IMG/VR virus record: IMGVR_UViG_2718217897_000010
Location: 1 to 16,044 of that record
Source of the DNA: a virus
Lineage: Duplodnaviria > Heunggongvirae > Uroviricota > Caudoviricetes
Reading direction: 5' to 3' (one strand)
DNA: 16,044 nt
The notes below the pieces were generated by a model. The model saw only the letters and a list, made by a program, of their open reading frames with translations. It was not told the DNA's origin and made no database searches. Every line of letters starts with the position of its first letter. Position 1 is the first letter of the stretch. Positions 1 through 14,676 of the stretch are shown piece by piece. The position numbers and the translations under genes were made by a program.

Positions 1-642
1 TTATGTTTTTGCAATAGTTAAACCAGATCGTTTAATATACTCATCTAACGTGCCAGAGGTGTCATGTATTTTCGCAACATGATAATTGAGTAAGCTAATT
101 TCTTTAGTTTGTAATTTTGGTGGAGGAATATCCGCTCTACCGCCATCCACAGATACCAATAAAAACCTGTCTAGGAATGCTCCGTCGTAATAAAGCTCAT
201 ACCAATATCCAGTTGCTCTGGGATCTGGATAATTGTTAGCCCAATCTTCTATAAAATTTTCACATTGAATTCCTTCATCAATGAACTTGGCTCGAAAACG
301 AAGACGTGGGTCTTCTTTAAGGAATCGTTCGCTAGCCCATTCCCTTGAAATCCCATGCCAATCTTGAGATGGTTCAGTTTTGGGTATGAAATTTAAGATT
401 TCCTCATATGTCATATCTCTGACAGGTTTACGTTCTGGTAAAAAATATTCTGCTACCGATGGGCTGGCTAAGAACAATGAACTAAGCATTCCCAGAGCGA
501 ATGCGATAGGTTCTATATCAAATCCTGATATCCAAAAAAAAGCTGCTATCAAAGCGGCCCCGAAAAAAATCCCCCCCAATACTCTAAGGGGATGTTGATA
601 TTGTTTTATCCATAACCAGATTGGTGTTAACTTAATTTTCAT
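1..642 (-). CDS. hypothetical membrane protein (213 aa): two predicted N-terminal TM helices, then ~150-aa soluble domain
   Basis: Complete ORF with stop codon at 1-3 and ATG at 642. Hydrophobic stretches VLGGIFFGAALIAAFFWISGF and IAFALGMLSSLFLASPSV near the N-terminus. AT-rich coding sequence. No family recognised. Confidence 0.5.
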   Translation of the reverse strand: MKIKLTPIWLWIKQYQHPLRVLGGIFFGAALIAAFFWISGFDIEPIAFALGMLSSLFLASPSVAEYFLPERKPVRDMTYEEILNFIPKTEPSQDWHGISREWASERFLKEDPRLRFRAKFIDEGIQCENFIEDWANNYPDPRATGYWYELYYDGAFLDRFLLVSVDGGRADIPPPKLQTKEISLLNYHVAKIHDTSGTLDEYIKRSGLTIAKT

Positions 643-1153
643 CTGCCATTCCGATTTGTCTAACTTATTTAGAATTAAGAGGTTGAAATTAAGAATAGAT
701 AATCATACTCACTACGGGCTTTGAATTTTGATATTACAATTATTTCATTTTATTTTCAATTAATTATACGTTATTTATTGAACAAGTTTCCATGCCCTCA
801 GTTAACCAAAATGTCCGTTTCTAGCACACAGCAGCCCTATAGACAGTGGAGTAAAGTCATGGAGGATCGGTGGGAGGAGATGCAAATCCTCTCATACAAA
901 AAATACGTAAAATCTATAACAGCTGGAAATCATTCAATACTCGCACTATTGGAAGTTCACCAGCCAACCGCAGCACGTTCTTGCATACGACGTGCCTGCG
1001 GTTTCAACTCCCGCCAGCTCCACCAATCATGATTGGGTGGCGTAAGGATAATACCAACAAAAACAGCAAGTTATCAGTCCAAGCAGGACACCAACCAGAC
1101 GGTGAGGATACAAAAAAAGATACGCAAAGGAGCCGCGGTGCCCTAGTGACTTG

Positions 1154-1176
1154 AAAGCCCACAGATGTGGGCTTTT
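1154..1176 (+). terminator. putative rho-independent terminator (stem AAAGCCCAC / GTGGGCTTT, loop AGAT, followed by TTTTAT)
   Basis: Perfect 9-bp inverted repeat with GC core read directly from sequence; T-run on the plus strand. Not attached to any convincing upstream gene. Confidence 0.4.
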
Positions 1177-1368
1177 ATGGAATAAAGTACTTGAACCAAC
1201 AGCAAGAAATCAGTCTTGATGCTAAGTACTAGTGATGAAGCCACAACAACTGCTCTCATAAAAACGAAGACACTTATCGTGCCACCATCAAAATCTTTGT
1301 GAGTGTATCCATTTCTTTTTACTTGAACAGAGAAAACAATAATGCTGCTTATTTGCACAGTAAAATAA

Positions 1369-1388
1369 TACTGTATACAAACACAGTG
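1369..1388. promoter_or_regulatory. LexA (SOS) box-like operator TACTGTATACAAACACAGTG
   Basis: Matches the CTGT-N8-ACAG core and 16 of 20 positions of the E. coli LexA consensus TACTGTATATATATACAGTA. Overlaps plausible -35/-10 hexamers on both strands (plus strand TTGCAC-17-TACAAA). Confidence 0.5.
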
Positions 1389-1587
1389 TAGAGGAAGTTT
1401 TATGCATATTCCAACTAGCATGAATGTCTTTCTGTCATAAAATTAATGTCTGTTATAAGCAGTGAGCCCAACCGATGCATGCAGCACATAGCGAACCCAA
1501 ATTACAGCCTTTACAGCCACTATTGTTCACCATTAGACAGATGCGAACATTTTCCTGTATGAAGATATTTAGACTGCTTTTATTTGT

Positions 1588-2685
1588 CTAAAAATTCTCT
1601 CTCTTGTGCTGCATTTTACTCTTATTTTCAAGCATAAGAAACATTGCTGCATTTTGCTCCCAAGATATTTTAGATAAAAACATTTTTTTAGAAAATGATT
1701 GTTCCAATTCTCCCAAAAACGAATCAAGCCACCAATAATATTCCCATCCCTTAGTTGTTAATAAAGACTTGGCATTAAAATCCACTGTAACTACCAAACC
1801 TACTGAATAAATTGAAAATGAATTAAACTCTCTACCCAAATAAAGATTTCCAAATTTCATTGGTAGATTAGCCCCGAATCCCTCGAACACAGGGCGATAA
1901 TTAATCTTAAATCTTTTAGTAACAATACTTATACTAGAGTCGCTCTCTCTTGTGAGCGAACTACTTTTGGGAAGAACTATTTCAAAATGGTCAAAAATTG
2001 CGCCTCCATTGCCATATGCATATACAACTTTACCTATAGATGGTAAAGAACTATAATCCATAAATTGCTCACGTTCATCCATAGCTCTAGAAAAAGTATC
2101 AATAAATCTATTCCCCATAAGAACATCAGGAATACTTTTCCTATCTAGTTTAACCAAATAATCATCGGAAAAAGTTTCATCATCATTAAAATAGCTACTT
2201 AAATGAAGAGCAAGTTTTCTTAAAACATAATACTCAATCGCCTCAATAAATAGTGCATTTGCTTTCATTTTTTTGCTATTTATCCCCTTCCCTTTAAAAT
2301 CAAAAGCATAACCAATTGGCCCCTCAGTCCATGATTTATGAATAGCCTTATTTTCCGCGCATAATCCTTTTAGGTAACGGCTAACCTCTTCGGAAAAATC
2401 GTAGCCTTCAATTGATATCAACTCTTTTTTTTCATTGTCTAAACACACAACCCCCTCAAAATCATATTTCCCATTATTCATAGGATAGGCGTTACGCAGA
2501 AAGATTGTGGCACCTAAAATTATTAGTAGCGCACCAACAACAATCATTTTCAAAAATGACAAGTTAAAATAACCAACAACGCCTGATGACAGTATATTTA
2601 CGCCCAAGGCAATTAACACCGCAACAATGAACACTTCGAATATATTTGTTTTAACGGCTAGTAGATCTGCTATTTTTTTCTTCAT
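1588..2685 (-). CDS. hypothetical membrane-anchored protein (365 aa): two N-terminal TM helices plus ~300-aa soluble domain
   Basis: Long ORF in an AT-rich block. N-terminus MKKKIADLL followed by hydrophobic segments FIVAVLIALGVNILSSGVVGYF and MIVVGALLIILGATIFL. No recognisable catalytic motif. Confidence 0.6.
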   Translation of the reverse strand: MKKKIADLLAVKTNIFEVFIVAVLIALGVNILSSGVVGYFNLSFLKMIVVGALLIILGATIFLRNAYPMNNGKYDFEGVVCLDNEKKELISIEGYDFSEEVSRYLKGLCAENKAIHKSWTEGPIGYAFDFKGKGINSKKMKANALFIEAIEYYVLRKLALHLSSYFNDDETFSDDYLVKLDRKSIPDVLMGNRFIDTFSRAMDEREQFMDYSSLPSIGKVVYAYGNGGAIFDHFEIVLPKSSSLTRESDSSISIVTKRFKINYRPVFEGFGANLPMKFGNLYLGREFNSFSIYSVGLVVTVDFNAKSLLTTKGWEYYWWLDSFLGELEQSFSKKMFLSKISWEQNAAMFLMLENKSKMQHKRENF

Positions 2686-3085: not shown

Positions 3086-3424
3086 TTATGAGTGAACATG
3101 ATGAACAACTATATCTTGCCCTGTTCTATGGGGATACCAACCACAATAGTGGGACAAACCGCCATTAATTAACTCATGCTCTAAATCTTCGTCCACCAGC
3201 ACGACAAGATGCCGCATACTGCGCCCCAGTCGGTCCAGTTTCCAGACCACCAGCGTATCACCTGCCGATAATGTCCTGAGCAGTTTTTTCAGTCCAGGCC
3301 TTTCGGACTTTGTACCGCTTATCTTGTCTTCAAAAATCAGCTCGCATCCTGCACAGTTCAGCGCATTACGTTGTAGATCTGTGTTCTGGTCATTTGTTGA
3401 CACACGTACATAGCCAATAAGCAT
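3086..3424 (-). pseudogene. DNA invertase (serine recombinase, Hin/Gin/Pin family), 3'-truncated
   Basis: Translation from the ATG at 3424: MLIGYVRVSTNDQNTDLQRNAL...GDTLVVWKLDRLGRSM, the classic invertase N-terminus including the catalytic Ser in RVSTNDQ. The ORF stops after ~112 codons and the C-terminal HTH DNA-binding domain is missing in all frames. The track ORF start at 3460 adds 12 non-homologous residues. Confidence 0.75.
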
Positions 3425-3450
3425 GGTAGATCTCCCTGACAAAAGCAGGA

Positions 3451-3843
3451 ATGATGCCATTTGCTCGTTATTTCTGCATTTTCATAAACGTTGGTTTGGG
3501 AGAAGCGGCCAAATTGCCTGCGATTAGTGGCTCTTTATCATCATCTGGCTGGATAAAAATCCCTGTTATAGAGGGGAAGTCTTTTATTATCCAATGGGGA
3601 AGAATCGGACCTTCTGATAGTAAAACTGGTGTTGCAACAGGAAGTTATCCTATTGCTTTTCCAAATTCTGCATTTATGGCATTTATTGCTGAAAAAACCG
3701 CAGTATCCACAGGCCCAATAGGTATTAATTCCTGGGGAGTATCCGAACTAACAAAAACAGAATTAAAGGCCATTTGTGCTGCAAGGACTATATCAACTTC
3801 AGCCGCAACTGAAACAGGTGATTTTCTGGTACTGGGATATTGA
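3451..3843 (+). pseudogene. side tail fibre C-terminal (variable, receptor-binding) segment; lacks the 5' constant part
   Basis: Contains IIQWG and PIAFPN motifs typical of lambdoid/Mu-type tail-fibre C-termini. Begins at the crossover site. Its stop overlaps the start of the downstream tail-fibre assembly gene (ATGA). No upstream constant tail-fibre region is present on this strand. Confidence 0.6.
3479..3504. other. invertase crossover site-like 26-bp imperfect palindrome (hix/gix/pix-like)
   Basis: TTTTCATAAACG-TT-GGTTTGGGAGAA. The reverse complement TTCTCCCAAACCAACGTTTATGAAAA matches about 20 of 26 positions of hixL as I recall it (TTCTTGAAAACCAAGGTTTTTGATAA). It lies next to the invertase gene and inside the 5' end of the tail-fibre segment, as expected for such switches. 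Confidence 0.45.
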
Positions 3844-4313
3844 GCTTCCATAAGGATTATAAAATGTCGAGCATAATATACTACAGCTCTATAAATAATG
3901 CATTTTACCCTGAGCATTTGAAACAAGAATATATTAAATCTAATTCTTTTCCAGCAGATGCAAAACCCGTTAAATATTCTGTTTTCGAAGAATTTGCACT
4001 TAAACCAGCACCAGAAGGAAAATACAGGTGCGTTGGTGAAGATGGAATGCCATCATGGGCAGATATTCCACCACCAACACATGAGGAACAGATTGCCGCA
4101 GCCGAATTGAAAAAGCAGCAATTGATTAACCAGGTCAACGAATACATGAACAGTAAACAATGGCCCGGTAAAGCGGCTATTGGTCGTCTGAAAGGTGAGG
4201 AACTGGCGCAATATAATCTGTGGCTGGATTACCTGGACGCACTGGAAATGGTCGATACTTCCAGTGCTCCAGATATTGAATGGCCTACGCCTCCGGCAGT
4301 TCAGGCCAGATGA
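3840..4313 (+). CDS. tail fibre assembly protein (Tfa family)
   Basis: 157 aa. N-terminus YYSSINNAFYPEHLKQEY and C-terminus LWLDYLDALEMVDTSSAPDIEWP are typical of Tfa/gpU-type chaperones. Translationally coupled to the fibre segment upstream. Confidence 0.8.
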   Translation: MSFHKDYKMSSIIYYSSINNAFYPEHLKQEYIKSNSFPADAKPVKYSVFEEFALKPAPEGKYRCVGEDGMPSWADIPPPTHEEQIAAAELKKQQLINQVNEYMNSKQWPGKAAIGRLKGEELAQYNLWLDYLDALEMVDTSSAPDIEWPTPPAVQAR

Positions 4314-4722
4314 CATCTGGCGCGGTGCTGGTATCAGTTGCCGTCACCGCGTCAATGTAATCCAGCACAGCGTTAAGGCGGGTTGTTTCTGTCTGCGTCA
4401 GTTTACGTCCGGCCTGCAATTTCAGTTGAATCAGACTGATGGAAGCCATTGCTGCATCAATTAGTAACTGGCGCTGTGCTTCTGCCGCGTCTACTGCGGC
4501 ACTGTGTTGTGCCTCAGTGTCTGTCACCCATTTCTCACCATCCCATTTATCGTATGGCGTTAACGGTGAAAGCGTGACATAACCGTCTTTGATGGCACCG
4601 ATATAATCCACTGTAACAGCTGCGCCATTTTCGATTGAGTAAACAGTCTCATTGCGATGGTCTTCTTCATGGCTCCATCCCTTACCTGTAAATATTGGCA
4701 TGGGGTAAGATTTCCGGCTCAT
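4285..4722 (-). CDS. tail fibre assembly protein (Tfa family), second copy in opposite orientation
   Basis: 145 aa. C-terminus AVLDYIDAVTATDTSTAPDVIWPELPEA is the conserved Tfa motif. Converges on the plus-strand Tfa with a 29-bp 3' overlap, as in Mu G / e14 P invertible segments. Confidence 0.75.
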   Translation of the reverse strand: MSRKSYPMPIFTGKGWSHEEDHRNETVYSIENGAAVTVDYIGAIKDGYVTLSPLTPYDKWDGEKWVTDTEAQHSAAVDAAEAQRQLLIDAAMASISLIQLKLQAGRKLTQTETTRLNAVLDYIDAVTATDTSTAPDVIWPELPEA

Positions 4723-5222
4723 GATTCGTTAATTTTCAGAAACGGGTTAGTGGCTTTCTTCTGCCCCGCCAGGCCAATCAGACGCTGGCGGCTGCTGGGG
4801 TCGAGTCCGAGCATTGCCCCCGTGCTGCTCATCTCGGACTCCTGTTCTTTTTTGGCGGTCAGCTCCGGATTTTTGACCCTGCCGCCCATTGCACCGGTGA
4901 TGGTGTTGCCCTGTATGGCAATATTTTTCACGGCACGTCGCCAGAACTCATAGGCCACGCACCACCGCTCAAGTACCGCCAGGTCAGTCACGCACAGCAG
5001 ACCCTGACCGCAGAGTTCTTTGGTTGTCAGTTGCCACATGATCGTGGCGAGAGGGAGATCTTCTTCAGCGAACCACTCCGGTGGCTCAACACCTTTGATG
5101 GGCGTAAAAACAGGTTCATCTTTGTTCAGGGCTCGCTTGCCGGGGTTTCCGGCCAGCGCCTTGCGCGCCGTTGGCTTGGGGCGACGCCCGGAACGCCCCG
5201 CCGTTCCAGCCATATGCGGCAC
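4719..5222 (-). CDS. phage terminase small subunit (P27-family-like)
   Basis: 167 aa. N-terminus MAGTAGRSGRRPKPTARKALAGNPGKRALNKDEP is characteristic of P27-type TerS. Its stop overlaps the start of the Tfa gene (ATGA), so no large terminase or structural genes follow. Confidence 0.65.
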   Translation of the reverse strand: MPHMAGTAGRSGRRPKPTARKALAGNPGKRALNKDEPVFTPIKGVEPPEWFAEEDLPLATIMWQLTTKELCGQGLLCVTDLAVLERWCVAYEFWRRAVKNIAIQGNTITGAMGGRVKNPELTAKKEQESEMSSTGAMLGLDPSSRQRLIGLAGQKKATNPFLKINES

Positions 5223-5338
5223 TCCTGGTTAAATTTCATTTTTCGCGGGTATAAAAAAACGATGGGGCGGGCAGTCCGGAAGACGTCAGGCCGCAGGGAT
5301 TTGACCCGCCCCTCCCCTCAAGCAGTTGAGAATTATTA
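5223..5338. other. putative cos / packaging-initiation region between HNH and terS
   Basis: Intergenic, with GC-rich inverted repeat GGGGCGGG (5264-5271) ... CCCGCCCC (5305-5312). HNH-cos-terS is the usual order in HK97-like cos phages (from memory). Confidence 0.3.
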
Positions 5339-5689
5339 TCACTTCAACCGTTCACGGGCCGTCTTCGCCTTATGACACGGCCAGCACAGACTCTGCAGAT
5401 TACGGTCGGCATCAGTGCCGCCATGCGCTTTAGGAATGATGTGGTCAACGGTTTTCGCCTCGCGCACCACACCGGCACGCAAACACAACTGACACAGGCC
5501 TTTGTCACGCTTCAGCACACGCGCGCGGATAACGTCCCACTTCGAACCATAACCGCGCTGATGACGGGATTGTCCTGGCTTGTATTGCTTCCAGCCTTCG
5601 CCTTTGTGTTGCTTGCAATAACCTGACGGGTCTGTGGTTGTCGATCGGCAGCCGCGAACACGGCAGGCTTTTGGTGTTCGTGGTGGCAT
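5339..5689 (-). CDS. HNH endonuclease (phage packaging-associated)
   Basis: 116 aa. Cys pairs CRVRGC and CQLC, plus DHIIPKAHGG ... NLQSLCWPCH, make up an HNH/zinc-finger motif. Located immediately upstream of terS. Confidence 0.8.
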   Translation of the reverse strand: MPPRTPKACRVRGCRSTTTDPSGYCKQHKGEGWKQYKPGQSRHQRGYGSKWDVIRARVLKRDKGLCQLCLRAGVVREAKTVDHIIPKAHGGTDADRNLQSLCWPCHKAKTARERLK

Positions 5690-5764
5690 TGAAATATTCT
5701 CTCTGATACTGCTCGCACGATATGCATAAAAACCTCCAACAGGCGGTTTATGTGTAGACGTATC

Positions 5765-6676
5765 TCAGTACTTAAATAAGAATTTGCTATTACTTTGAAA
5801 TTGAGATGGTGTGGTTGCAATCGGACTAGATGTCGCAGCTATCTCTTCAAGTAACTCAGCTTTCCAGACATGCCCTAGTTGCAAAGATTCACTATGCGAC
5901 ACTTTGTATTCTGCAGCACTAACGACTTGTTCTAAGAAAAGATCACTGTTTAGCATTTGCATACTTGCATAAACGCCAAGGAAATGAATTTTCATTCCCA
6001 TATCCATGATCATATTCCCTTCTTTTGTAAGATAACCACTGTGCGTGACATAGAATGCCGGAGAGCCTGACATTCCAGGGAAAGCAGAAATATCGACAAC
6101 TATTAATTTCTTCCCATCGAAATCGATATCTGGCTCACTCGCTAAGCTTCCTGTTTTCCATATTGGAAGGTAGTGAGTCGTGTCATGATAACCATGAGGA
6201 TATCCAATCATTACAACAGGAGATGAGGGGTTTATCTGGACATTAGGCAGTGTCGTTGTTTTTGAGACTACTTTTACTCCTGTGTTTACAAACAACTCTT
6301 GAGGCAAAGGCATCAAGATAATGTCTGCCTCTTTATCTGTGGGGTGCTCCAACCACAGCGGTGAACCATCTTTAAACAGAGGCATCGTATGTTTGAATAG
6401 TTTTCCGGTTTTATCTCTCAGCTGAATATCAATACTATCGCCTATAAATGGCTTTACACCCCTTTCGGATGGGCTGATTCCAGTTATTACATGATAGTTA
6501 GTTGCAAGGAAAATGAAACCATTGCTATGTTGATAAAAGAACCCAGTACCTAACGACTTTGACTCTCCATTAGACCTCAAAATTACTAAAGTAGTTACCA
6601 GAGATAGCGGCTGTACGTTTTGCATAAAATTCATCCAACATGAACTTCGATATAGGTTGTAAAAGCATACAATCAT
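5765..6676 (-). CDS. trypsin-like (chymotrypsin-fold) serine protease, cytoplasmic; start codon uncertain
   Basis: Candidate catalytic triad in the canonical order: His in ATNYHVITG, Asp in EADIILMPL, Ser in GMSGSPAF (GDSGGP-like). No signal peptide. AT-rich. Alternative starts at internal Met15 or Met18 (MNFMQNV). Confidence 0.6.
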   Translation of the reverse strand: MIVCFYNLYRSSCWMNFMQNVQPLSLVTTLVILRSNGESKSLGTGFFYQHSNGFIFLATNYHVITGISPSERGVKPFIGDSIDIQLRDKTGKLFKHTMPLFKDGSPLWLEHPTDKEADIILMPLPQELFVNTGVKVVSKTTTLPNVQINPSSPVVMIGYPHGYHDTTHYLPIWKTGSLASEPDIDFDGKKLIVVDISAFPGMSGSPAFYVTHSGYLTKEGNMIMDMGMKIHFLGVYASMQMLNSDLFLEQVVSAAEYKVSHSESLQLGHVWKAELLEEIAATSSPIATTPSQFQSNSKFLFKY

Positions 6677-6742
6677 TCCAGAAAATTCTTAACCAACTAT
6701 TTCCAATATATGAATCGCCAATTCCGATCTAGCTATATAACC

Positions 6743-7015
6743 TCACTTTTCAGCAGAGTTTTTCTCCGAAAGCAGGTGCTCACTCTTTCTAATGTCTAAC
6801 TTATCCCTATTACAAGACGCCAGCGCCGACAACAGGCTTACGTTCAAATCCAGGCTCCCACTCCATGTCAGCGGGTCGGGGATAGCTGGTTGCGGAGTTT
6901 CAGCGGTCAGATTCGCTAGTAGTGGTACCGCCGAAACTGGTACGTAAACTGTCCGCGTACCGGCGCAGCCGTTCAGCTGCACGAGCAGGAACAGGACGGG
7001 CAGCGCAATCATCAT
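6743..7015 (-). CDS. Rz1-like o-spanin (outer-membrane lipoprotein), overlapping the 3' end of Rz in a different frame
   Basis: MMIALPVLFLLVQLNGC followed by a proline-rich mature region (VPVSAVP, TPQPAIPDP). Starts inside Rz and runs past its stop. Lipobox LNGC is non-ideal and the signal peptide lacks a basic residue; the start may instead be the in-frame ATG at 7081. Confidence 0.4.
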   Translation of the reverse strand: MMIALPVLFLLVQLNGCAGTRTVYVPVSAVPLLANLTAETPQPAIPDPLTWSGSLDLNVSLLSALASCNRDKLDIRKSEHLLSEKNSAEK

Positions 7016-7292
7016 TCGCAAAAGCCATTTTGATATCAGCCTGGGTTCTCTGTGACTCCAGTGCGATCTGCTGTTTTGCATGCTGGTTAGCCTCCAGTAC
7101 TGTATTGACGATTTGTAGTGATTGCAGGACGTTATTAGTAATGGCAGTTGCCGATTTGGCATTTTGTACAGCCTCATCAGCACGTTTCTTTTCGTGCTGA
7201 TATTTGCTGTAGTAGTGGTTGGTTGACCAGATGAAAGAACAGACGACAGTTAAAAGGAAAGCAGCGATAATCAGCTTATAGCTCAACTTCAT
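6900..7292 (-). CDS. Rz-like i-spanin
   Basis: 130 aa with one N-terminal TM helix (LIIAAFLLTVVCSFIW) and a charged, probably coiled-coil periplasmic domain. Immediately downstream of the endolysin and overlapping it. Confidence 0.55.
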   Translation of the reverse strand: MKLSYKLIIAAFLLTVVCSFIWSTNHYYSKYQHEKKRADEAVQNAKSATAITNNVLQSLQIVNTVLEANQHAKQQIALESQRTQADIKMAFANDDCAARPVPARAAERLRRYADSLRTSFGGTTTSESDR

Positions 7293-7752
7293 TTACCACC
7301 CCACCAGCCTCTTTAAACCTGGCAATCAGGTCACCGATTTTATGTTCATACTGACCATAACCAGCGCCCGGCAGTGAAGCCCAGATATTGCTGCAACGGT
7401 CGATTGCCTGACGGATATCACCGCGATCAATCATCGGTAAAGCGCCACGCTCTTTAATCTGCTGTAATGCCACGGAGTCCTGGCTTCTGGGAGAGAAGTC
7501 TTTCAGCCCTAGCTGCTTGCGGTAGGCATCCCACCAACGGGAAAGAAGCTGGTAACGTCCGGCTGCTGTTGATTTGAGTTTCGGGTTTAGCGTGACAAGT
7601 TTGCGAGGATGATCGGAGTAATCAGTAAACAGTTCACCACCGACAATGACATCATAACCGTGGTTACGTGTCGGTTGTCGCCCGTTATCCGTTCCTTCTG
7701 ACCATGCAACCATATCCAAGAAAGCTTTACGCTGGGAATTTAGTGCCTGCAT
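7276..7752 (-). CDS. R: endolysin, lambda R-like lytic transglycosylase
   Basis: 158 aa. NSQRKAFLDMVAWSEGTDNGRQPTRNHGYDVIVGGELFTDYSDHPRKLVTLNPKLKS ... is near-identical along its length to lambda R as I recall it, including the catalytic Glu in WSEGT. Confidence 0.9.
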   Translation of the reverse strand: MQALNSQRKAFLDMVAWSEGTDNGRQPTRNHGYDVIVGGELFTDYSDHPRKLVTLNPKLKSTAAGRYQLLSRWWDAYRKQLGLKDFSPRSQDSVALQQIKERGALPMIDRGDIRQAIDRCSNIWASLPGAGYGQYEHKIGDLIARFKEAGGVVNEVEL

Positions 7753-7755
7753 AAA

Positions 7756-8082
7756 TTACTCCTTCGAGCTACCAAATTTGTTACCGATTACTCGCATTGC
7801 AGCCCCACGAATTGCATCGACACCAATCAGCCCAACACCGCCACCAATGGCAACAGAAAGAGATTTAGGCCATCCGACATACTCAAGAGCGGATGCAAAA
7901 GTCAGCGTCAGAGCACCACAGAGCAAAATCTCGAGCGTTTTTCGTTTCCAGCCACCACCACCGCCAAAATAGGCAATGCGCAAGCCAGCCATAACGATCG
8001 ACATAATCACTGCGCCCAGCGGTGTGTCTCCACGCCACCAGCTCTGGAACAACTCCAGCCAGGTATTTGGGTTATGAGGCAT
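7756..8082 (-). CDS. holin (class I, three TM segments, lambda S-like size)
   Basis: 108 aa with three hydrophobic segments and a charged C-terminus (NKFGSSKE). Sits directly upstream of the endolysin with 3-bp spacing. Confidence 0.7.
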   Translation of the reverse strand: MPHNPNTWLELFQSWWRGDTPLGAVIMSIVMAGLRIAYFGGGGGWKRKTLEILLCGALTLTFASALEYVGWPKSLSVAIGGGVGLIGVDAIRGAAMRVIGNKFGSSKE

Positions 8083-8234
8083 TTGTAGTTATCTCTCACC
8101 TCGCTGATACAGCAGGTGCAAATTGAGGGAACATCATGTACAGCAAATTAGAAGCGGAAACGTCAAAGAAGCCGAACCAATGGATAACTGCGGAATAGAC
8201 CAGGACCAACGAATCCCCAGCCCCAGAAACGACA

Positions 8235-8256
8235 AAACCCGCTCGACGGCGGGTTT
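8235..8256 (-). terminator. putative intrinsic terminator on the minus strand upstream of the holin (tR'-like position)
   Basis: Hairpin AAACCCGC-TCGACG-GCGGGTTT. On the minus strand the GC stem is followed by TTTTGTCGTTTCT. Confidence 0.35.
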
Positions 8257-8367
8257 AAGCTGTGTGGCGAAGTAACCACTCTTAACACGATACAATAATT
8301 TTTGCGTACGCGTTAGCGTTTTTGTAAGATTAACAAATAAATCGAAAAATCATAATCGGATGATTTC

Positions 8368-9390
8368 ATGGCAAAATTAAATGCTAGCGAAAGACTCGTT
8401 ACTCATCATAGTCTGACCATTGACACAAAGTTTAGAACCAAGGCAACACAAGAGGTAAAAGCCCAGTGTATATGTCCTGTTCCGGAAATGTACATGCTTG
8501 CCCCATTGATTGTTAAACAAAAGGGACTCGTTCATTCATATGATTCTGGGAATATTGTAGTTACTCTCCAAGATGTACAACTTTATCCTTTACTTCCAGA
8601 TAACTCACCCACGCATATTGTCCTTCTTATTAATAGTGTTGATAAAAATGGAAGTACTACCGTTGTAAAAAATATAAATACTAATGAACGCGTTGAAATC
8701 CAACCAAAATATGAACAAGGTGAAGGCTATGAAGTTTCTACCTATGTTGTCATATCATTAAATGGAAATAAAAGAACCTATGATATGATTTGTACATCTA
8801 CCCCAGGTGTATCTACGGCCCGGTTAAATAGTTTTTTAGACAAAATTCTCTTTGAAGTGGCGAAAGACAATGAAGACTTATTTACCGCAAAACATCCAAC
8901 TAACGTTATTTCTGCAACATCAAAAAAAGAAGTAAAAATACGATACAAACCAATATTTGAATTTACAGGAATGTTAGACAAGGAGCTTTTTAATAAAATA
9001 AGCCAAAAAGGATTATCAGATGTCATATTAGTCAAGGATCAATTCGGAACAATTAATGCTCCTGATGTTAACTCACCTTACATTCCGACTGAAAGTACAT
9101 TAAAATTACTTCCAAATCATGGTGACAATGTTATTGGATGGATTAAAAATGTAGCATCTCATTTCAATAAAAAAATGAATGGTGGTTATGATAAATTAAA
9201 GGTTAAATTCCAAGATCCTGAAACAAATAAACCAAGGCAGGTTGATTTCAAAACCTCAAACATCAATCTTAATAATTTAGAAAAAACATTTATTAAGAAA
9301 AGCATTATCGATAACTTTAATTCGCGCCTGAAGGATTCATATGTTAAAATTGAGCTAGAGTTTGTTGTGAAAATGATAGATTTGATGTGA
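8368..9390 (+). CDS. hypothetical soluble protein (340 aa), first gene of an AT-rich two-gene cargo operon
   Basis: ORF with ATG at 8368. Strongly AT-rich, Asn/Lys/Ser/Thr-rich, no TM segment, no recognisable NTPase, nuclease or NTase motif. 7-bp gap to the downstream gene, which has its own SD (GTGAGG). Confidence 0.6.
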   Translation: MAKLNASERLVTHHSLTIDTKFRTKATQEVKAQCICPVPEMYMLAPLIVKQKGLVHSYDSGNIVVTLQDVQLYPLLPDNSPTHIVLLINSVDKNGSTTVVKNINTNERVEIQPKYEQGEGYEVSTYVVISLNGNKRTYDMICTSTPGVSTARLNSFLDKILFEVAKDNEDLFTAKHPTNVISATSKKEVKIRYKPIFEFTGMLDKELFNKISQKGLSDVILVKDQFGTINAPDVNSPYIPTESTLKLLPNHGDNVIGWIKNVASHFNKKMNGGYDKLKVKFQDPETNKPRQVDFKTSNINLNNLEKTFIKKSIIDNFNSRLKDSYVKIELEFVVKMIDLM

Positions 9391-9397
9391 GGTTATT

Positions 9398-9982
9398 ATG
9401 CCAATACTTTCAGTTTTCTCTCATCTAGGCAAGCCGTTTGGATATCTTTTTATTAAAGGTATTAGCGGCAAAGCTGCATATGATTGGGTAGCGCCAATTC
9501 TACTTACTTCTATCACAGCAGTACTTTTCATTCTATTAAAAATCCCTGTCAAAGATTTATTTGATGACAATGGTTTCATTAAATCAATCGTTTCATTTAT
9601 CTCTAACCTACCAGGGTTTTATATTGCCGCTCTGGCCGCCATAGCAACTTTCAATAGAGCTGAGATTGATTTACCATTGATTAGCAATGAAAGAAATGCC
9701 TCTATTGAAATAAAAGTAACAAAAGAAAATGGAAAAGTAGTAAATTCAGAGGAGGTTCTGACCAGACGATTATTTCTTTGCATGCTATTCTCTTTTTTAA
9801 CAGCATTAAGCATTGTTATAATAATACTTAATGCTATATTTTCACCATTAATCAATGTCTATCAAAACAGTTTTGTTTTAATGGTTTATACTGTTGTATT
9901 TACTTTCCTCGTTTGGCAACTCTTAGTATCAACTTTCTTTGGATTATATTATCTCGGAAACAGAATTCATATGAATTATTAA
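9398..9982 (+). CDS. hypothetical integral membrane protein (194 aa, four predicted TM helices)
   Basis: Hydrophobic segments at about residues 30-49, 64-85, 125-148 and 159-186, with a ~40-residue charged loop between TM2 and TM3. Coupled to the upstream 340-aa gene. Confidence 0.6.
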   Translation: MPILSVFSHLGKPFGYLFIKGISGKAAYDWVAPILLTSITAVLFILLKIPVKDLFDDNGFIKSIVSFISNLPGFYIAALAAIATFNRAEIDLPLISNERNASIEIKVTKENGKVVNSEEVLTRRLFLCMLFSFLTALSIVIIILNAIFSPLINVYQNSFVLMVYTVVFTFLVWQLLVSTFFGLYYLGNRIHMNY

Positions 9983-10002
9983 GCCCTACAGGGGCTTAAT
10001 AA
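9976..10002. repeat. 11-bp perfect inverted repeat TTATTAAGCCC-TACAG-GGGCTTAATAA spanning the stop codons of two convergent genes
   Basis: Read directly. The left arm contains the TAA stop of the 194-aa gene (9980-9982) and the spacer/right arm contains the TAG stop of the Q-like gene (9986-9988). Confidence 0.6.
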
Positions 10003-10378
10003 TCAACAAAATACCTTCAATCACTCCTATTGCTGCTTGAAGTTGTTTTCTGATTGACCCGTCAGAGCATTTCCGTTTCTTTGCTATTGAACGGAGTGAA
10101 ATACCGATAACAAAGTGAGCAATGATCAGTTCATATTCTTCTGGCTTATATTTCCGCATTCGCGCAACACAGCTGTCAATCATGATTCCTTCATCATCAT
10201 CGCATTGTTGGCGTGTTTTCTTTCCATGAGGTAGTAAACCTTTAAACCCTGCAGCAACAGGCTGCCAGTCCACACCACTGTTAACCGCGGGAAAATTTCC
10301 GAAGAAGACACCACCGAAACGCCGATGTATGTCAATCGCGGTGGTCGCCTGACTATTCTGCAGGAAGACCAGGGACAA
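9986..10378 (-). CDS. Q-like late antiterminator (phage 21/QuuD-type); non-ATG (TTG) start, possibly defective
   Basis: 130 aa containing AAGFKGL, CDDDEGIMIDSCVARM and CSDGSIRKQLQAAIGVIEGIL, which resemble phage-21-type Q proteins as I recall them. The ORF begins with TTG directly after an in-frame TAA; the first internal ATG is at codon ~66. Confidence 0.5.
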   Translation of the reverse strand: MSLVFLQNSQATTAIDIHRRFGGVFFGNFPAVNSGVDWQPVAAGFKGLLPHGKKTRQQCDDDEGIMIDSCVARMRKYKPEEYELIIAHFVIGISLRSIAKKRKCSDGSIRKQLQAAIGVIEGILLIIKPL

Positions 10379-10497: not shown

Positions 10498-11322
10498 ATG
10501 TCTCAGAACTTAGACGCAACCGCAATTAATCAAATCCATGCCCTTATTTCTGCTCAGGGTGTTAATGAAATTATCAGTAAGATTGGTGCCGATGCTGTGG
10601 CATTGCCTGAGAATTTCCGCATTCATGATCTGGAAAAATTTAATTTAAATCGCTTCCGTTTCCGTGGTGCGCTTTCCACTGCCAGCATCGATGACTTTAC
10701 CCGTTATTCTAAAGATCTTGCAGATGAAGGCACCCGCTGCTTTATCGATGCTGATAATATGCGTGCCGTCAGTGTACTTAACCTGGGTACTATTGATGAA
10801 CCAGGTCACGCAGATAACACCGCCACTCTCAAACTGAAAAAGACAGCACCGTTCTCTGCCCTGTTGTCTGTTAACGGCGAGCGTAACTCCCAGAAGTCAC
10901 TGGCAGAATGGATCGAAGACTGGGCCGACTACCTTGTGGGCTTTGATGCTAATGGTGATGCCATTCAGGCAACAAAAGCGGCTGCGGCAGTCCGTAAAAT
11001 CACGATTGAAGCAAACCAGACCGCTGATTTTGAAGACAATGACTTCAGCGGCAAACGCTCCCTGATGGAGTCTGTCGAAGCGAAGACCAAAGATATTATG
11101 CCTGTGGCATTTGAATTTAAATGCGTTCCGTTTGAAGGCCTGAAAGAACGTCCGTTTAAATTACGCCTCAGCATTATCACTGGCGATCGTCCTGTACTGG
11201 TTCTGCGCATTATTCAGCTGGAAGCAGTGCAGGAAGAAATGGCTAACGAATTTCGTGATCTGCTTGTTGAGAAATTCAAGGACAGCAAAGTAGAAACCTT
11301 TATTGGTACTTTCACCGCCTGA
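10498..11322 (+). CDS. DUF2303 / YfdQ-like prophage early-region protein
   Basis: 274 aa with good SD (GTGAGGA). Sequence resembles the CPS-53 prophage YfdQ family (from memory). Confidence 0.7.
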
Positions 11323-11334
11323 TTTCATTACTGC

Positions 11335-11356
11335 AAATGCCCCTGCGGGGGCATTT
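11335..11356 (+). terminator. putative terminator hairpin AAATGCCCC-TGCG-GGGGCATTT after the YfdQ-like gene
   Basis: 9-bp perfect inverted repeat 13 bp past the stop. The T-run is short and partly inside the stem, so strength is uncertain. Confidence 0.35.
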
Positions 11357-11449
11357 ATGGAAACGTAATTGACTCAATAATCGCCGGATGGTGAGGGCTT
11401 CCTTTTACCAGAATTCAGCGCGGTGCAGCGCATATACGTGGAGAACAAA

Positions 11450-11986
11450 ATGTCATTTATTAAAACTTTTTCCGGGAAGCATTTTTATTATGACAGGATA
11501 AATAAAGACGACATCGTTATTAACGATATCGCGGTTTCTCTTTCAAATATCTGTCGCTTTGCAGGGCATCTTTCACATTTCTACAGCGTTGCCCAACATG
11601 CGGTGCTTTGCAGCCAACTGGTACCGCAGGAATTTGCTTTTGAAGCGTTAATGCATGATGCAACAGAAGCGTATTGCCAGGACATCCCGGCGCCACTGAA
11701 ACGCCTTCTTCCTGACTATAAACGGATGGAAGAAAAAATAGATGCAGTAATCCGTGAGAAATACGAGTTGCCCCCGGTTATGAGCACGCCTGTGAAATAT
11801 GCCGATCTAATCATGCTGGCAACCGAACGCCGTGATCTCGGGCTTGATGATGGCTCTTTATGGCCTGTACTGGAAGGTATCCCGGCAACAGAGATGTTCA
11901 AAGTTATTCCACTGGCACCGGGCCATGCCTACGGGATGTTTATGGAACGCTTCAACGAGTTATCGGAATTACGCAAATGTGCATAA
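11450..11986 (+). CDS. HD-domain metal-dependent phosphohydrolase (YfdR-like 5'-deoxynucleotidase family)
   Basis: 178 aa from the ATG at 11450, preceded by GGAGA. Contains the HD motif in ALMHDATEAY. The track ORF start at 11423 is GTG and adds 9 residues. Confidence 0.75.
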   Translation: MSFIKTFSGKHFYYDRINKDDIVINDIAVSLSNICRFAGHLSHFYSVAQHAVLCSQLVPQEFAFEALMHDATEAYCQDIPAPLKRLLPDYKRMEEKIDAVIREKYELPPVMSTPVKYADLIMLATERRDLGLDDGSLWPVLEGIPATEMFKVIPLAPGHAYGMFMERFNELSELRKCA

Positions 11987-12855
11987 CTCATGTAGTTAGT
12001 TTTTCTGGCGGGAGAACATCCGCATATCTTGTTCACCTGATGGAAGAACAAAGAAAGGCTGGCAATAACGTCTGCTACATCTTTATGGATACCGGTTGCG
12101 AACATCCGCTGACATACCGCTTTATCCGGGAGGTTGTGAAGTTCTGGGACATACCACTAACTGTGTTACAGGTCGATATAAATCCTGAGCTTGGGCAGCC
12201 AAATGGTTATACAGAATGGGAGCCAAAGGATATTCAGACACGAATGCCGGTGCTTAAACCGTTTATGGACATGGTTAAAAAGTACGGCACGCCATACATC
12301 GGCGGCGCGTTCTGTACTGATAGGCTAAAACTCATCCCTTTCACGAAATACTGCGATAACCATTTCGGGCGAGGTAATTACATCACATGGCTGGGTATTC
12401 GTGCAGACGAACCCCGTAGGCTGAAACCGAAATCGGGCGTCCGGTATCTTGCCGAGCTGTCAGATTTTGATAAGTCGGATGTTATCCGGTGGTGGCGAAA
12501 ACAACCTTTTGATTTGCAAATCCCGGAGCATCTCGGGAACTGTGTTTTCTGCATCAAAAAGTCAACGCAAAAGCTGGGGCTTGCATGTAAAGACGAACCA
12601 GGTCTGATGCGAGTTTTTAATGAGCTGGTTACAGGCAAACACGTCAGGGATGGTCATCGCAGAACAGGTAAAGACATTATGTACCGTGGTCACCTGACGC
12701 TTGACGGAATTGCCAGAATGTCTGCCAACAGCGACTACAGAAATTTGTATCAGGCGATGGTACAGGCCAGGCGATTCGATACCGGCTCGTGTTCAGAGTC
12801 ATGTGAAATCTGGGGTGATCAATTGGAATTGGAATTCAAAGAGGTAGGGGTATGA
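11977..12855 (+). CDS. PAPS-reductase-like (PP-loop ATP pyrophosphatase superfamily) protein
   Basis: PP-loop motif SFSGGRTS near the N-terminus. Start MCITHVVSFSGG at 11977 overlaps the upstream stop. C-terminal cysteines (CVFC, CSESC). Confidence 0.7.
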   Translation: MCITHVVSFSGGRTSAYLVHLMEEQRKAGNNVCYIFMDTGCEHPLTYRFIREVVKFWDIPLTVLQVDINPELGQPNGYTEWEPKDIQTRMPVLKPFMDMVKKYGTPYIGGAFCTDRLKLIPFTKYCDNHFGRGNYITWLGIRADEPRRLKPKSGVRYLAELSDFDKSDVIRWWRKQPFDLQIPEHLGNCVFCIKKSTQKLGLACKDEPGLMRVFNELVTGKHVRDGHRRTGKDIMYRGHLTLDGIARMSANSDYRNLYQAMVQARRFDTGSCSESCEIWGDQLELEFKEVGV

Positions 12856-13196
12856 CAACCGAAATTAACTACCATGCACTGCTTGAGCGCGCACGGAATA
12901 AAGTGCAGAGCATTGAGTTCGCCTTAACACAGAGTGCATTCGCTGAGATTCGCGCTGAGCTTGAAAATGATTTAGAACTGGCACGGATTGCACTGGCATC
13001 TCTGGAAGTTGAGCCAGATGAACGCGCAGCCTATGAATTATTTATGGAAAAGCGTTTCGGTAAAACAGTCGATCGTCGGAGAGCAAAAAACGGCGATAAC
13101 GAATACATGGCATGGGATATGACTCTCGGTTGGATCGTCTGGCAGCAACGAGCTGGTATCCATTTTTCAACAATGTCACAGCAAGAGGTGAAATAA
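12852..13196 (+). CDS. hypothetical early-region protein (114 aa)
   Basis: Translationally coupled on both sides: ATGA overlap with the upstream gene and TAATG overlap with xis. Confidence 0.55.
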   Translation: MTTEINYHALLERARNKVQSIEFALTQSAFAEIRAELENDLELARIALASLEVEPDERAAYELFMEKRFGKTVDRRRAKNGDNEYMAWDMTLGWIVWQQRAGIHFSTMSQQEVK

Positions 13197-13546
13197 TGGA
13201 GCCATACAGCCTCACACTCGATGAGGCCTGTCATTTTCTCAAGATATCCAGACCGACTGCCATTAACTGGATACGCACAGGGCGTCTTCAGGCAACACGC
13301 AAAGATCCCACTAAGAATAAATCTCCTTACCTCACAACACGACAAGCCTGCATTGCGGCTCTTCAGTCTCCGCTGCATACTGTCCAGGTGAGCGCGGGTG
13401 ATGGCATAACAGAGGAAAGAAAATGTCACTCTTCCGCAGAGGTGAAATATGGTACGCCAGTTTCACATTGCCGAACGGTAAAAGATTTAAACAGTCTCTT
13501 GGAACAAAGGACAAAAGGCAGGCGACAGAACTCCATGACAAGCTAA
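13196..13546 (+). CDS. xis: excisionase (P22 Xis-like)
   Basis: [38 protein letters not shown] is an HTH excisionase N-terminus. About 116 aa, overlapping the 5' end of int in another frame, as in P22. Confidence 0.7.
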
Positions 13547-14586
13547 AGGCTGAAGCATGGCGGGTCAGCAAACTTGGTGAAATACCTGATATAACGTTCG
13601 AGGAAGCGTGTGTCAGGTGGCTTGAAGAGAAAGCACATAAAAAATCACTGGACGATGACAAAAGCCGGATCGGATTCTGGCTTCAACATTTCGCAGGAAT
13701 GCAACTAAGAGACATTACTGAATCAAAAATTTATTCAGCAATGCAGAAAATGACGAACCGGCGTCATGAGGAAAACTGGAAACTCAGGGCAGAAGCATGC
13801 AGAAAAAAAGGGAAACCTGTTCCAGAATACACGCCAAAACCAGCGTCCGTTGCAACGAAGGCTACGCATCTTTCATTTATAAAGGCCCTACTAAGAGCCG
13901 CAGAGCGTGAATGGAAAATGCTGGATAAGGCACCAATTATTAAAGTGCCTCAACCAAAGAATAAACGGATCCGCTGGCTGGAGCCCCATGAAGCACAAAG
14001 GCTGATTGATGAATGTCCGGAGCCATTAAAGTCTGTTGTTGAATTTGCACTGGCAACAGGCTTAAGACGCTCGAACATCATCAACCTTGAATGGCAACAA
14101 ATAGACATGCAGCGCCGGGTGGCATGGATAAACCCGGAAGAGAGTAAATCAAACCGCGCAATTGGCGTTGCGCTGAATGATACTGCATGTCGCGTATTGA
14201 AAAAACAAATCGGGAATCATCACCGTTGGGTATTTGTGTACAAGGAAAGCTGTACCAAACCAGACGGAACGAAAGCGCCAACGGTCAGGAAGATGCGGTA
14301 TGACGCAAACACAGCCTGGAAAGCGGCGCTGAGACGGGCTGGTATTGATGATTTCAGATTTCACGACTTGAGACACACCTGGGCAAGCTGGCTGGTTCAA
14401 GCCGGAGTCCCGTTGTCAGTGTTACAGGAAATGGGAGGCTGGGAGTCTATCGAAATGGTTCGTCGATATGCTCACCTTGCACCTAATCACCTTACCGAAC
14501 ACGCACGGCAAATAGACTCGATCCTGAACCCATCGGTCCCAAATTTGTCCCAGTCAAAAAATAAGGAAGGTACTAATGATGTGTAA
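13423..14586 (+). CDS. int: tyrosine site-specific integrase (P22 Int-like, 387 aa)
   Basis: N-terminus [49 protein letters not shown]-terminal catalytic region [39 protein letters not shown] carries the conserved H-x-x-R and Tyr. Ends 14 bp from the tRNA 3' end. Confidence 0.9.
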
Positions 14587-14600
14587 CTTATTGATTTAAA

Positions 14601-14676
14601 TGGTGCCGATAATAGGAGTCGAACCTACGACCTTCGCATTACGAATGCGCTGCTCTACCAACTGAGCTATATCGGC
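14601..14676 (-). tRNA. thrW: tRNA-Thr (anticodon CGU)
   Basis: The reverse complement folds as a canonical cloverleaf: acceptor stem GCCGATA/TATCGGC, anticodon loop TTCGTAA, T-arm GGTTCGACTCC, 3' CCA encoded. Confidence 0.95.

Follow-up and report, generated by a model that had tools for sequence, protein, structure and literature searches.

An intact lysis cassette in a deletion-reduced SfII-like prophage at thrW is most probably a recent deletion remnant

Why should a prophage that has lost most of its genome still carry a complete set of lysis genes? The question is raised by a stretch of 16,044 nt, the whole of which was analysed (the window; IMG/VR record IMGVR_UViG_2718217897_000010). 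An initial annotation had placed an apparently intact lysis cassette at 6743-8082, with structural, replication and immunity genes all deleted and the antiterminator gene Q retained. It left two explanations: the cassette is kept under selection, for example for SOS-linked lysis, or it is simply a recent deletion product. We favor the latter. With a probability of roughly 85%, the intact cassette is an ordinary, very recent deletion remnant; its genes would be intact as almost no time has elapsed, and their sequence is the same as that of a still-lytic phage.

The cassette consists of four genes:

7756-8082, minus strand: S, predicted lambda-family class I holin, 108 aa (TIGR01594, PF05106, phrog_126)
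7276-7752, minus strand: R, predicted lambda-R-type endolysin (lytic transglycosylase), 158 aa (PDB match 1AM7/3D3D, phrog_90)
6900-7292, minus strand: Rz, predicted i-spanin, 130 aa (phrog_214; N-terminal TMD; Cys18 and Cys96)
6743-7015, minus strand: Rz1/LysC, predicted o-spanin lipoprotein, 90 aa from ATG 7015 (PF23793, phrog_456)

The boundaries given initially were exact, as the S start codon lies at 8082 and 6743 is the final base of the Rz1 stop codon. All four frames are open, with neither frameshifts nor stops, and are backed by family matches and by nucleotide identity to phage SfII. Indeed, the cassette is free of such lesions because the entire block is nucleotide-identical to SfII.

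S, 100% identical to SfII S at the nucleotide level, matched TIGR01594 (holin_lambda) over residues 1-106 (1.9e-35, 121.3 bits, cutoff 55.05) and PF05106 (6.6e-25, 87.9 bits, cutoff 23.8). This full-length profile match above the curated cutoff assigns the predicted protein to the lambda-family class I holins. A Kyte-Doolittle hydropathy estimate gave three hydrophobic segments (residues 20-41, 49-69, and 74-91), that is, the predicted three transmembrane segments. The dual-start motif typical of lambda S, which holin family membership does not require, is absent from S (N-terminus MPHNPN, next Met at residue 27). The holins of SfII, SfIV, and SfV likewise lack it (PMC3851460). R, identical to SfII R, gave no match at E<=0.01 in Pfam and NCBIfam profile searches. 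A PDB sequence search resolved its identity: lambda lysozyme 1AM7 was matched over residues 3-157 (5e-96), and the catalytic Glu19 is kept in AWSEGTD. The close relation to lambda R together with Glu19 points to a lambda R-type lytic transglycosylase (GH104).

Rz matched the Rz-like spanin family phrog_214 (4.3e-45), and its score against PF10828 (DUF2570; 23.2 bits) was under the cutoff of 26.6. With a TMD predicted at residues 1-25, a periplasmic domain and the Rz-like family match, the protein fits an i-spanin. In E. coli TW10828 the gene has been called by PGAP as a C-terminally incomplete pseudogene. We did not accept this call, which we put down to an annotation error caused by the overlapping lysC: across Rz the TW10828 nucleotide sequence is identical to the window and SfII, the 130-aa frame is open, the length is the same in SfII, SfIV, and SfV, and 80 of 80 IMG/VR relatives extend to residue 126 or beyond. 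Rz1 lies in the +1 frame relative to Rz, overlaps it at 6900-7015 and runs on past its 3' end; a PGAP-style alternative start is at 7081. It matched PF23793 (LysC; 7.1e-13, 48.7 bits, cutoff 27) and phrog_456 (4e-23). Its lipobox, LNGC, has the Cys codon at 6967 and is atypical (Asn at -2) when compared to LLTGC in relatives, and LNGC also occurs in functional SfII. The lipobox Cys is kept in SfIV, SfV, the APEC allele described below and all 80 IMG/VR loci. The lipobox Cys and the +1-frame overlap with the i-spanin gene are those expected of an o-spanin.

Judged by these matches, the cassette is a known, canonical lambda-type lysis operon of an SfII-like temperate phage. In such an operon the S holin builds up in the inner membrane and triggers holes, the R transglycosylase passes through the holes and cleaves the murein, whereupon the Rz/Rz1 spanins, acting as a complex, fuse the inner membrane with the outer.

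Gene content and insertion site indicate that the surrounding element is an SfII-like temperate prophage (lambdoid regulation, Mu-like tail) at thrW, reduced by two illegitimate deletions from approximately 41 kb to approximately 15.9 kb. The junctions and the retained features are as follows:

10282/10283: deletion junction 1, where Q codon 18/19 is joined to the interior of yfdP, with a 2-nt TA microhomology
4285-4722, minus strand: fusion ORF across deletion junction 2 (4700/4701), terL codons 1-7 fused to a Caudo_TAP ORF
4719-6676, minus strand: retained late block (Pfam, PADLOC)
5765-6676, minus strand: S1/trypsin-like peptidase, candidate PDC-S45 (PADLOC 5.8e-42)
5339-5689, minus strand: HNH endonuclease (Pfam)
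about 5214-5280: cos (position mapped from SfII bp 59-125)
4719-5222, minus strand: small terminase gene terS (Pfam)
13423-14586, plus strand: integrase (annotation of the TW10828 prophage locus L001)
14583-14646: att core repeat
14601-14676, minus strand: tRNA-Thr(CGU) gene thrW (ARAGORN, Rfam)
14791-16044, minus strand: proA, adjoining the integrase/att/thrW region

BLAST coordinates and the junction sequences define junction 1 as a clean deletion of 7,612 bp relative to the TW10828 prophage. It removed DUF968, KilA-N, RusA, LexA-like, PerC, O-like replication, cII-like, cro, and cI genes, including the S24-type repressor, along with pR and pL. At junction 2 approximately 17 kb of head and tail genes were lost, between terL codon 7 and a point within a tail-fibre assembly gene. 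The terL-homologous sequence begins at 4701, the fusion ORF matched PF02413 (1.7e-26), and the exact 145-aa fusion product was found in only 5 contigs. The second att repeat lies approximately 1.25 kb past the left end of the window (15956-16019 in sister assembly L004), which gives the remnant its size of approximately 15.9 kb. An Rfam search of the window returned tRNA-Thr only.

The lysis genes sit between both deletions and were simply missed by them. The initial statement that structural, replication and immunity genes are all deleted holds for immunity and replication, which are wholly gone, and not for packaging and structure, of which terS, HNH, cos, a C-terminal tail-fibre fragment, two tail-fibre assembly ORFs, and a truncated pin invertase survive. 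Also surviving are int, xis, both att sites, yfdQ/R-like early-left genes, and three candidate defense genes. The retention of int, xis, att, cos, terS, and HNH might suggest a satellite or PICI-like element. This reading was rejected: the element has no replication module and no capsid-size redirection genes, and its size is unsuited to cos packaging.

From the upstream region to the Rz1 stop (8367-6743, 1,625 nt) we found 0 differences to SfII and to prophage loci L004, L006, L007, L010, and L011, and 1 difference to each of six other prophages. The longer segment 4701-10283 was 99.91-99.95% identical to SfII and 99.857% identical to the TW10828 prophage (7 mismatches in 5,583 nt, one of the seven lying in the cassette and synonymous). 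On this comparison the lysis genes are not specially conserved, as the flanking non-lysis late genes match equally well. A second assembly with both deletions, GCA_965266795.1, differed by 3 SNPs in 14,722 positions (6705, 12320, and 12634), none of them in the cassette. Under neutrality 0.27 substitutions are expected over 1,340 nt, and the probability of observing none is about 0.76. The intactness of the cassette therefore needs no selection. Together with the small number of contigs, these figures bear out the suggestion of a recent deletion product. Zero divergence is compatible with recency, and by itself it does not disprove a benefit. The parent sequence is that of an active phage: SfII was obtained by induction of S. 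flexneri 2a NCTC 4 and is infectious for three serotypes (PMC3772137), from which it follows that its lysis genes work. The identical Rz protein was listed in 574 collection blocks. In the ten contexts displayed it was always accompanied by full-length Q, terS, portal, capsid, and an S24-type repressor, and terL was called in nine of them.

Persistence of the block could also owe something to the genes that flank the cassette, among them a moron between Q and S:

8368-9982, plus strand: two-gene moron, 340 aa and 194 aa, equivalent to SfII_50 and SfII_49

Its proteins match phrog_9879 and phrog_8257 and the PADLOC candidate defense system PDC-M53 (A, 2.1e-32; B, 2.8e-54). In the SfII genome paper, SfII_49/50 and the peptidase downstream had been described as unique hypothetical proteins; they match candidate defense families. 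It is conceivable that 4719-9982 persists as the lysis genes are sandwiched between host-beneficial PDC-M53 A/B and PDC-S45, in which case deletions taking the lysis genes would tend to take the accessory genes too. The three PADLOC matches fit this account, as do the foreign GC of the moron (32% in the GC profile), its position in the Q-S interval, a classical cargo site (PMC3851460), and the two deletion endpoints, which fall just outside the block. However, PDC-M53 and PDC-S45 are candidate systems only, and the PDC-S45 gene is IS-disrupted in SfII, so it is dispensable to the phage and not universally kept. Moreover, endpoints from two deletions carry no statistical weight and recency alone suffices for retention. 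We consider such hitch-hiking improbable.

Whether the cassette can still be expressed depends on the region upstream of S and on Q:

8083-8367, minus strand: late regulatory region of 285 bp from the PDC-M53A start to S, presumed to hold pR' and the Q-loading site
8235-8256, minus strand: tR'-like intrinsic terminator upstream of S (terminator scan), AAACCCGC-CGTCGA-GCGGGTTT followed by TGTCGTTTCT
9986-10283, minus strand: Q', the 3' 98 codons plus stop of a 116-aa PF06530 antiterminator Q (alignment, Pfam)

The regulatory region is 100% identical to SfII and to prophages with a 116-aa Q. Strict and relaxed scans of it found no consensus sigma-70 promoter, only weak candidates in 8257-8367. 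The terminator (8256-8235) had an RNA fold of -16.3 kcal/mol (z = -2.0). It has the same sequence in SfII and TW10828, and in the SfV record a terminator is likewise annotated at the corresponding place before S.

The claim that Q was retained had to be corrected. Aligned to SfII and the TW10828 prophage (whose full 116-aa Q is WP_001205461.1), Q' lacks the RBS, the ATG, and codons 1-18 of 116, with yfdP-derived sequence in their place, and its Pfam match (PF06530, Q21/Q82-type) covers the profile only from position 19 of 118 onward. The complete ORF, own start codon and N-terminal helix of an intact Q are thus absent, and in sister assembly L004 no gene was called at this position. The distant relative Q21, of the same Pfam family, loads at a promoter-proximal pause and blocks terminator hairpins, with Ser29 lining its torus (bioRxiv 10.1101/651190). 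In the alignment with Q21, the deleted residues 1-18 correspond to positions up to about residue 30, and the L-x-x-W-G-A-W motif that they hold corresponds to residues 20-26. A chimeric Q' ORF (9986-10378) that opens with a TTG at 10378 is present, and its translation is conceivable.

Expression of the late operon would need Q to read through the terminator upstream of S, and this Q has lost its start, its first 18 codons, and all promoters that drove it. Because the operon is Q-dependent and Q is truncated and promoterless, the cassette is probably silent unless a related phage provides Q in trans. A weak promoter downstream of the terminator may give low-level constitutive transcription of the cassette.

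This arrangement bears directly on the proposal that the host keeps the cassette by purifying selection, for autolysis under stress or SOS, for release of eDNA or OMVs, or for cell-wall maintenance. There is a precedent in the DLP12 S-R-Rz/Rz1 operon of E. coli K-12: deletion of that lysis module alters OMV production, and its expression is stress-responsive (PMC7918800). In the window all four ORFs are intact, and the dN/dS check proposed initially was positive family-wide, with values below 1 for R (0.04-0.05), Rz (0.32-0.36), and S (0.01-0.19, those against SfV and APEC being inflated by N-terminal length differences in an end-anchored alignment). Frequent inactivating mutations, which would have spoken against selection, were not seen either, as none of the 80 IMG/VR loci held an inactivated copy. 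However, the family set and the 80 loci are mostly full-prophage-like contigs, in which the phage lifestyle explains low dN/dS and intact copies, and these data therefore do not bear on domestication. Within the remnant lineage the dN/dS check has no power: with zero substitutions there is nothing to count and no selection signal is possible. The flanks are conserved to the same degree as the cassette, and the architecture is rare (5 contigs). A DLP12-like module would have persisted in the defective state across enough host divergence for other parts of the element to show neutral decay; here carriers differ by 3 SNPs in 14.7 kb, the architecture is seen in 5 contigs, and the cassette is identical to that of active phages.

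Nothing here supports SOS-linked lysis in particular: the element has only a truncated Q, it has lost the S24-type repressor together with pR and pL, and the terminator still stands before S. LexA boxes were sought and none lies near the cassette, the sole perfect match in the window being far away at 1371-1386. We regard domestication as highly improbable. Finding lysis genes intact in a defective prophage speaks for domestication only where the element has existed long enough for neutral decay to have been possible.

A different function would be that of a trans-activatable module, still answering Q from a co-resident or superinfecting SfII-type phage. The added holin and endolysin dosage in the late phase could advance lysis, and the cos/terS remnant could be mobilised. 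Region 8083-8367 is unaltered, Q proteins work in trans at their own loading site (10.1101/651190), SfII-like prophages with the same Q type are common, and the element still has int, xis, both att sites, cos, terS, and HNH. Against this, a replication module is missing, a size of 15.9 kb falls well short of the cos-packageable length for a 41-kb capsid, and any effect on lysis timing is speculative; as an account of the locus we find it unlikely. Taken further, the remnant would be a Q-responsive "lysis decoy" without its own Q, switched on only by the Q of an SfII-type phage. Its late transcription unit may comprise the unaltered Q-loading/terminator region, the full lysis set, and candidate PDC-M53 and PDC-S45. 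If this were true, increased holin dosage would cause premature lysis and a smaller burst of the incoming or induced phage, and a silent cassette would be an abortive-infection-like defense against the prophage's own relatives. We give this scenario scarcely any credence.

Read as a recent deletion remnant, the element is one more derivative of a common SfII-like thrW prophage and as such matters little. The cassette should nevertheless stay lethal when given a cognate Q, a point that matters for strain engineering and for interactions between prophages.

The closest known system is SfII itself (KC736978; S, R, RZ, and RZ1 are SfII_51-54), in which the four genes and the 285 bp upstream are nucleotide-identical to the window. 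The gene order is the same, with the SfII_49/50 moron between Q and S and peptidase-HNH-terS downstream, and so is the integration site, thrW beside proA. Absent from the window element are the Q 5' end, the immunity and replication genes, the gtr serotype-conversion genes, and the majority of the head and tail genes. The Q remnant belongs to the 116-aa type, and SfII Q, with a 39-nt in-frame gap, has 103 aa. The tail-fibre end of the element has a pin invertase module that SfII lacks.

When compared to lambda S-R-Rz-Rz1, the functional plan and order are the same, the holin belongs to the lambda S family, and R is close to lambda R with Glu19 conserved. In contrast, the holin has no lambda-like Met-Lys-Met dual start, Rz is of the DUF2570/phrog_214 type and not PF03245 as in lambda, and Q is in PF06530 and not in the lambda Q family. 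Rz1 is of the LysC type: instead of lying wholly inside Rz it overlaps and extends past it, an arrangement shared with P2 LysB/LysC.

DLP12 of E. coli K-12 (essD-rrrD-rzpD/rzoD) likewise keeps an intact S-R-Rz/Rz1 operon in a defective lambdoid prophage. It has experimental phenotypes and regulated expression (PMC7918800), whereas in the window Q is truncated and there is almost no divergence from active phages. In the thrW prophage of APEC 102026 (NZ_CP087290.1) Q and the whole early region were lost independently, by an IS5/ISKpn26-associated deletion, and the lysis cassette is intact; structural genes are kept there. Its cassette is a different allele, about 86-93% identical to the window at the nucleotide level across S, R, and Rz, and its holin carries the dual-start MKM motif. 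As this case is independent, loss of the early region with survival of the lysis genes is a recurrent outcome.

The element is a thrW-site prophage, as shown by proA, the tRNA gene thrW and an integrase gene at the right end of the window, and its closest matches were Shigella phage SfII and SfII-like E. coli prophages. The att core at 14583-14646 was found again approximately 1.25 kb past the left window edge; the remnant therefore measures about 15.9 kb, vs. 41.5 kb for SfII. The features below were mapped by BLAST against the E. coli TW10828 prophage, SfII, and other loci.

Features of the remnant element and its flank
1-2685, minus strand: two hypothetical genes, low GC
3086-4722: tail-fibre assembly ORFs, tail-fibre C-terminal fragment, truncated pin invertase
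4700/4701: junction 2, deletion
4719-5222: terS
about 5214-5280: cos
5339-5689: HNH
5765-6676, minus strand: trypsin-like peptidase (PF13365)
6743 to ATG at 7015 (7081 by PGAP convention), minus strand, +1 frame: Rz1 (PF23793 LysC, above cutoff)
6900-7292, minus strand: Rz-like spanin Rz, 130 aa (phrog_214, 4.3e-45; N-terminal TMD)
7276-7752, minus strand: R, lambda-R-type transglycosylase, 158 aa (lambda lysozyme 1AM7, 5e-96)
7756-8082, minus strand: S, lambda-family holin, 108 aa (TIGR01594, 1.9e-35, 121 bits vs. cutoff 55; PF05106, 6.6e-25)
between S and moron: regulatory region, 285 bp
8368-9982, plus strand: two-gene moron, SfII_50 and SfII_49 equivalents, GC 32%
9986-10283: 3' part of Q
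10282/10283: junction 1, deletion
10498-14586: int, xis-like, PAPS-reductase-like, yfdR-like and yfdQ-like genes
13423-14586: integrase
14601-14676: thrW, tRNA-Thr
14791-16044: proA

The initial annotation had called this prophage gutted, which holds for immunity, replication and most morphogenesis functions, but the lysis genes and Q are not the sole survivors: int, a xis-like gene, cos, terS, HNH and tail-fibre pieces are present. Region 3086-4722 is the leftover of an invertible tail-fibre segment, with a pin-family invertase truncated to its Resolvase N-terminal domain, a gp53-like tail-fibre fragment, and two tail-fibre assembly ORFs facing opposite ways, one of them fused to terL codons 1-7.

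The interval first proposed for the lysis cassette, 6743-8082, is filled exactly by four reading frames on the minus strand, and the reported lack of frameshifts and premature stops was borne out. The cassette is real and intact, a known module, already published for SfII (PMC3851460), in a very recent deletion derivative. The S holin has three hydrophobic segments, and no dual-start motif was found in it. R gave no match in Pfam or NCBIfam; its naming as an R-like transglycosylase was nevertheless right, since the lambda lysozyme match spans residues 3-157 and the catalytic Glu19 of the crystal-structure sequence is conserved. Rz1 begins within Rz and extends beyond the Rz stop, and its lipobox Cys (codon 6967) was kept in all relatives examined. 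Close holin relatives differ in the antiholin start: a related cassette in the E. coli APEC 102026 thrW prophage (L016 5559-5900) encodes a holin starting MKMHND, a lambda-like dual-start motif, whereas the SfII and window holin starts MPHNPN, without a second start. In TW10828 the Rz homologue (L001 5320-5592) is flagged as an incomplete pseudogene by RefSeq/PGAP, with the sequence of the functional SfII Rz. This flag is probably an artefact of the handling of overlapping lysC, and many genomes may be affected.

Q is not intact, as alignment to SfII and the TW10828 prophage showed. Homology to the 116-aa Q begins at codon 19 (the Pfam Q match likewise starts at profile position 19), and all that lay upstream, with the RBS, ATG and residues 1-18 (MRDMYEVLDRWGAWAAAD), is replaced by antisense sequence from inside yfdP. 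Junction 1 has a 2-nt TA microhomology and no IS element. Relative to TW10828, 7,612 bp are gone there, comprising DUF968, KilA-N, RusA, a LexA-like gene, PerC, an O-like replication gene, cII-like, cro, cI, and the early promoters. The Q remnant is thus without its native start and without any native promoter, and in a second assembly carrying both deletions (GCA_965266795.1) the gene caller found no gene at its place. In a weak alignment (E 2e-4) the lost segment places an L-x-x-W-G-A-W motif on Q21 residues 20-26, and the deletion extends to the position of Ser29, which in Q21 lines the RNA-threading torus at its narrowest point (bioRxiv 10.1101/651190). We infer that the remnant is non-functional. 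The window fragment is of the 116-aa type found in E. coli SfII-like prophages, and SfII Q (L003 35266-35577) has a 39-nt in-frame gap giving 103 aa, so a close mosaic relative, not SfII itself, was the ancestor.

The cassette activator is truncated and a terminator stands in front of the cassette. This G+C-rich hairpin, which leads into a T-rich tract (8256-8235, minus strand, between moron and S; predicted free energy -16.3 kcal/mol), has the same sequence in SfII and TW10828, and the SfV record annotates a terminator at the equivalent place. Such a layout is expected where a late operon depends on Q (for the mechanism, see 10.1101/651190). Promoter scans of the late regulatory region yielded none assignable. 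The cassette might be switched on in trans by the Q of a related phage, which we regard as unlikely and which is compatible with the other readings. A link to SOS, raised initially as a possibility, has no visible regulatory basis, since no LexA box was found near the cassette and the S24-type repressor gene is deleted.

The 1,625 nt between the beginning of the regulatory region and the end of Rz1 (stop included) show 100% identity to SfII and to five more loci, of which four are full-length prophages; another six prophages have a single-nucleotide difference. SfII, a phage induced from S. flexneri 2a NCTC 4, infected three serotypes (PMC3772137), so this exact sequence belongs to a cell-lysing phage. 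Across 4701-10283, identity is 99.857% to TW10828 (7 mismatches over 5,583 nt, of which a single, synonymous one falls inside the cassette) and 99.91-99.95% to SfII, and the lysis genes are no more conserved than their neighbours. Between the window and the second assembly there are 3 differences over 14,722 positions, all of them outside the cassette; a divergence this low predicts 0.27 substitutions per 1,340 nt (P(0) ~0.76). The 145-aa terL-tail-fibre assembly fusion product, a marker of the architecture, occurred in 5 contigs. The identical Rz protein occurred in 574 blocks of the collection, and all 10 contexts shown had full-length Q, terS, portal, capsid, and S24-type repressor (terL called in 9). 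In APEC 102026 an unrelated, IS5-mediated deletion at this site took out Q together with the early region, and there too the lysis cassette stayed intact. Given this identity, the equally conserved neighbours, the near-identical sister, the rare fusion and the APEC case, recency alone suffices to explain the intactness of the cassette. Of the two explanations initially offered, we thus favour a recent deletion product, probably silent (probability about 85%).

The proposed dN/dS comparison gave values below 1 across the family (vs. SfIV, SfV, and the APEC allele: R 0.04-0.05, S 0.01-0.19, and the non-overlapping part of Rz 0.32-0.36); in the remnant lineage it was not computable because there were zero substitutions. 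Among 80 IMG/VR loci with Rz relatives, mostly full prophage contigs, R was intact, Rz extended to at least residue 126 and the Rz1 lipobox Cys was present in every one, as was an intact holin in all 63 possessing the window type. No inactivated copy was seen in this sample. These values show ordinary purifying selection in mostly full prophages and have no bearing on domestication.

The gap between Q and S is a classical cargo site, the location of stx in Stx phages, and is occupied here by the moron pair (340 aa and a hydrophobic 194 aa). The SfII genome paper lists SfII_49 and SfII_50 as unique hypothetical proteins; the pair has no Pfam domain and matched PADLOC candidate defence system PDC-M53 A/B (2e-32 and 3e-54). 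The peptidase between Rz1 and HNH/terS matched PDC-S45, a PADLOC candidate made up of one gene (6e-42). The window and most SfII-like prophages have an intact copy, and an IS911-type insertion disrupts that of SfII. Retention of the cassette through hitch-hiking with these flanking candidate defence genes is improbable. The pair at 1-2685 (GC 33-39%), at the attR end beside the pin invertase, encodes one product of 213 aa, which the window edge truncates, and another of 365 aa that has a hydrophobic N-terminal region. It had no Pfam match, the 213-aa ORF gave a weak PADLOC match to PDC-S50 (8e-4) and nothing else, and the pair may be cargo. A perfect LexA-box-like palindrome (CTGTATACAAACACAG, 1371-1386) lies in the AT-rich stretch between these genes; no target gene was identified, and an overlapping 92-aa ORF looks non-coding.

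Retention of lysis modules by defective prophages for host benefit has been proposed for DLP12 (PMC7918800). Host domestication of the present cassette is very improbable: of the testable features of such DLP12-like status, the window locus shows none. Functionally the cassette corresponds to the lambda-type S-R-Rz/Rz1 system, with spanin genes that overlap as LysB/LysC do in P2, unlike those of lambda, which are embedded.
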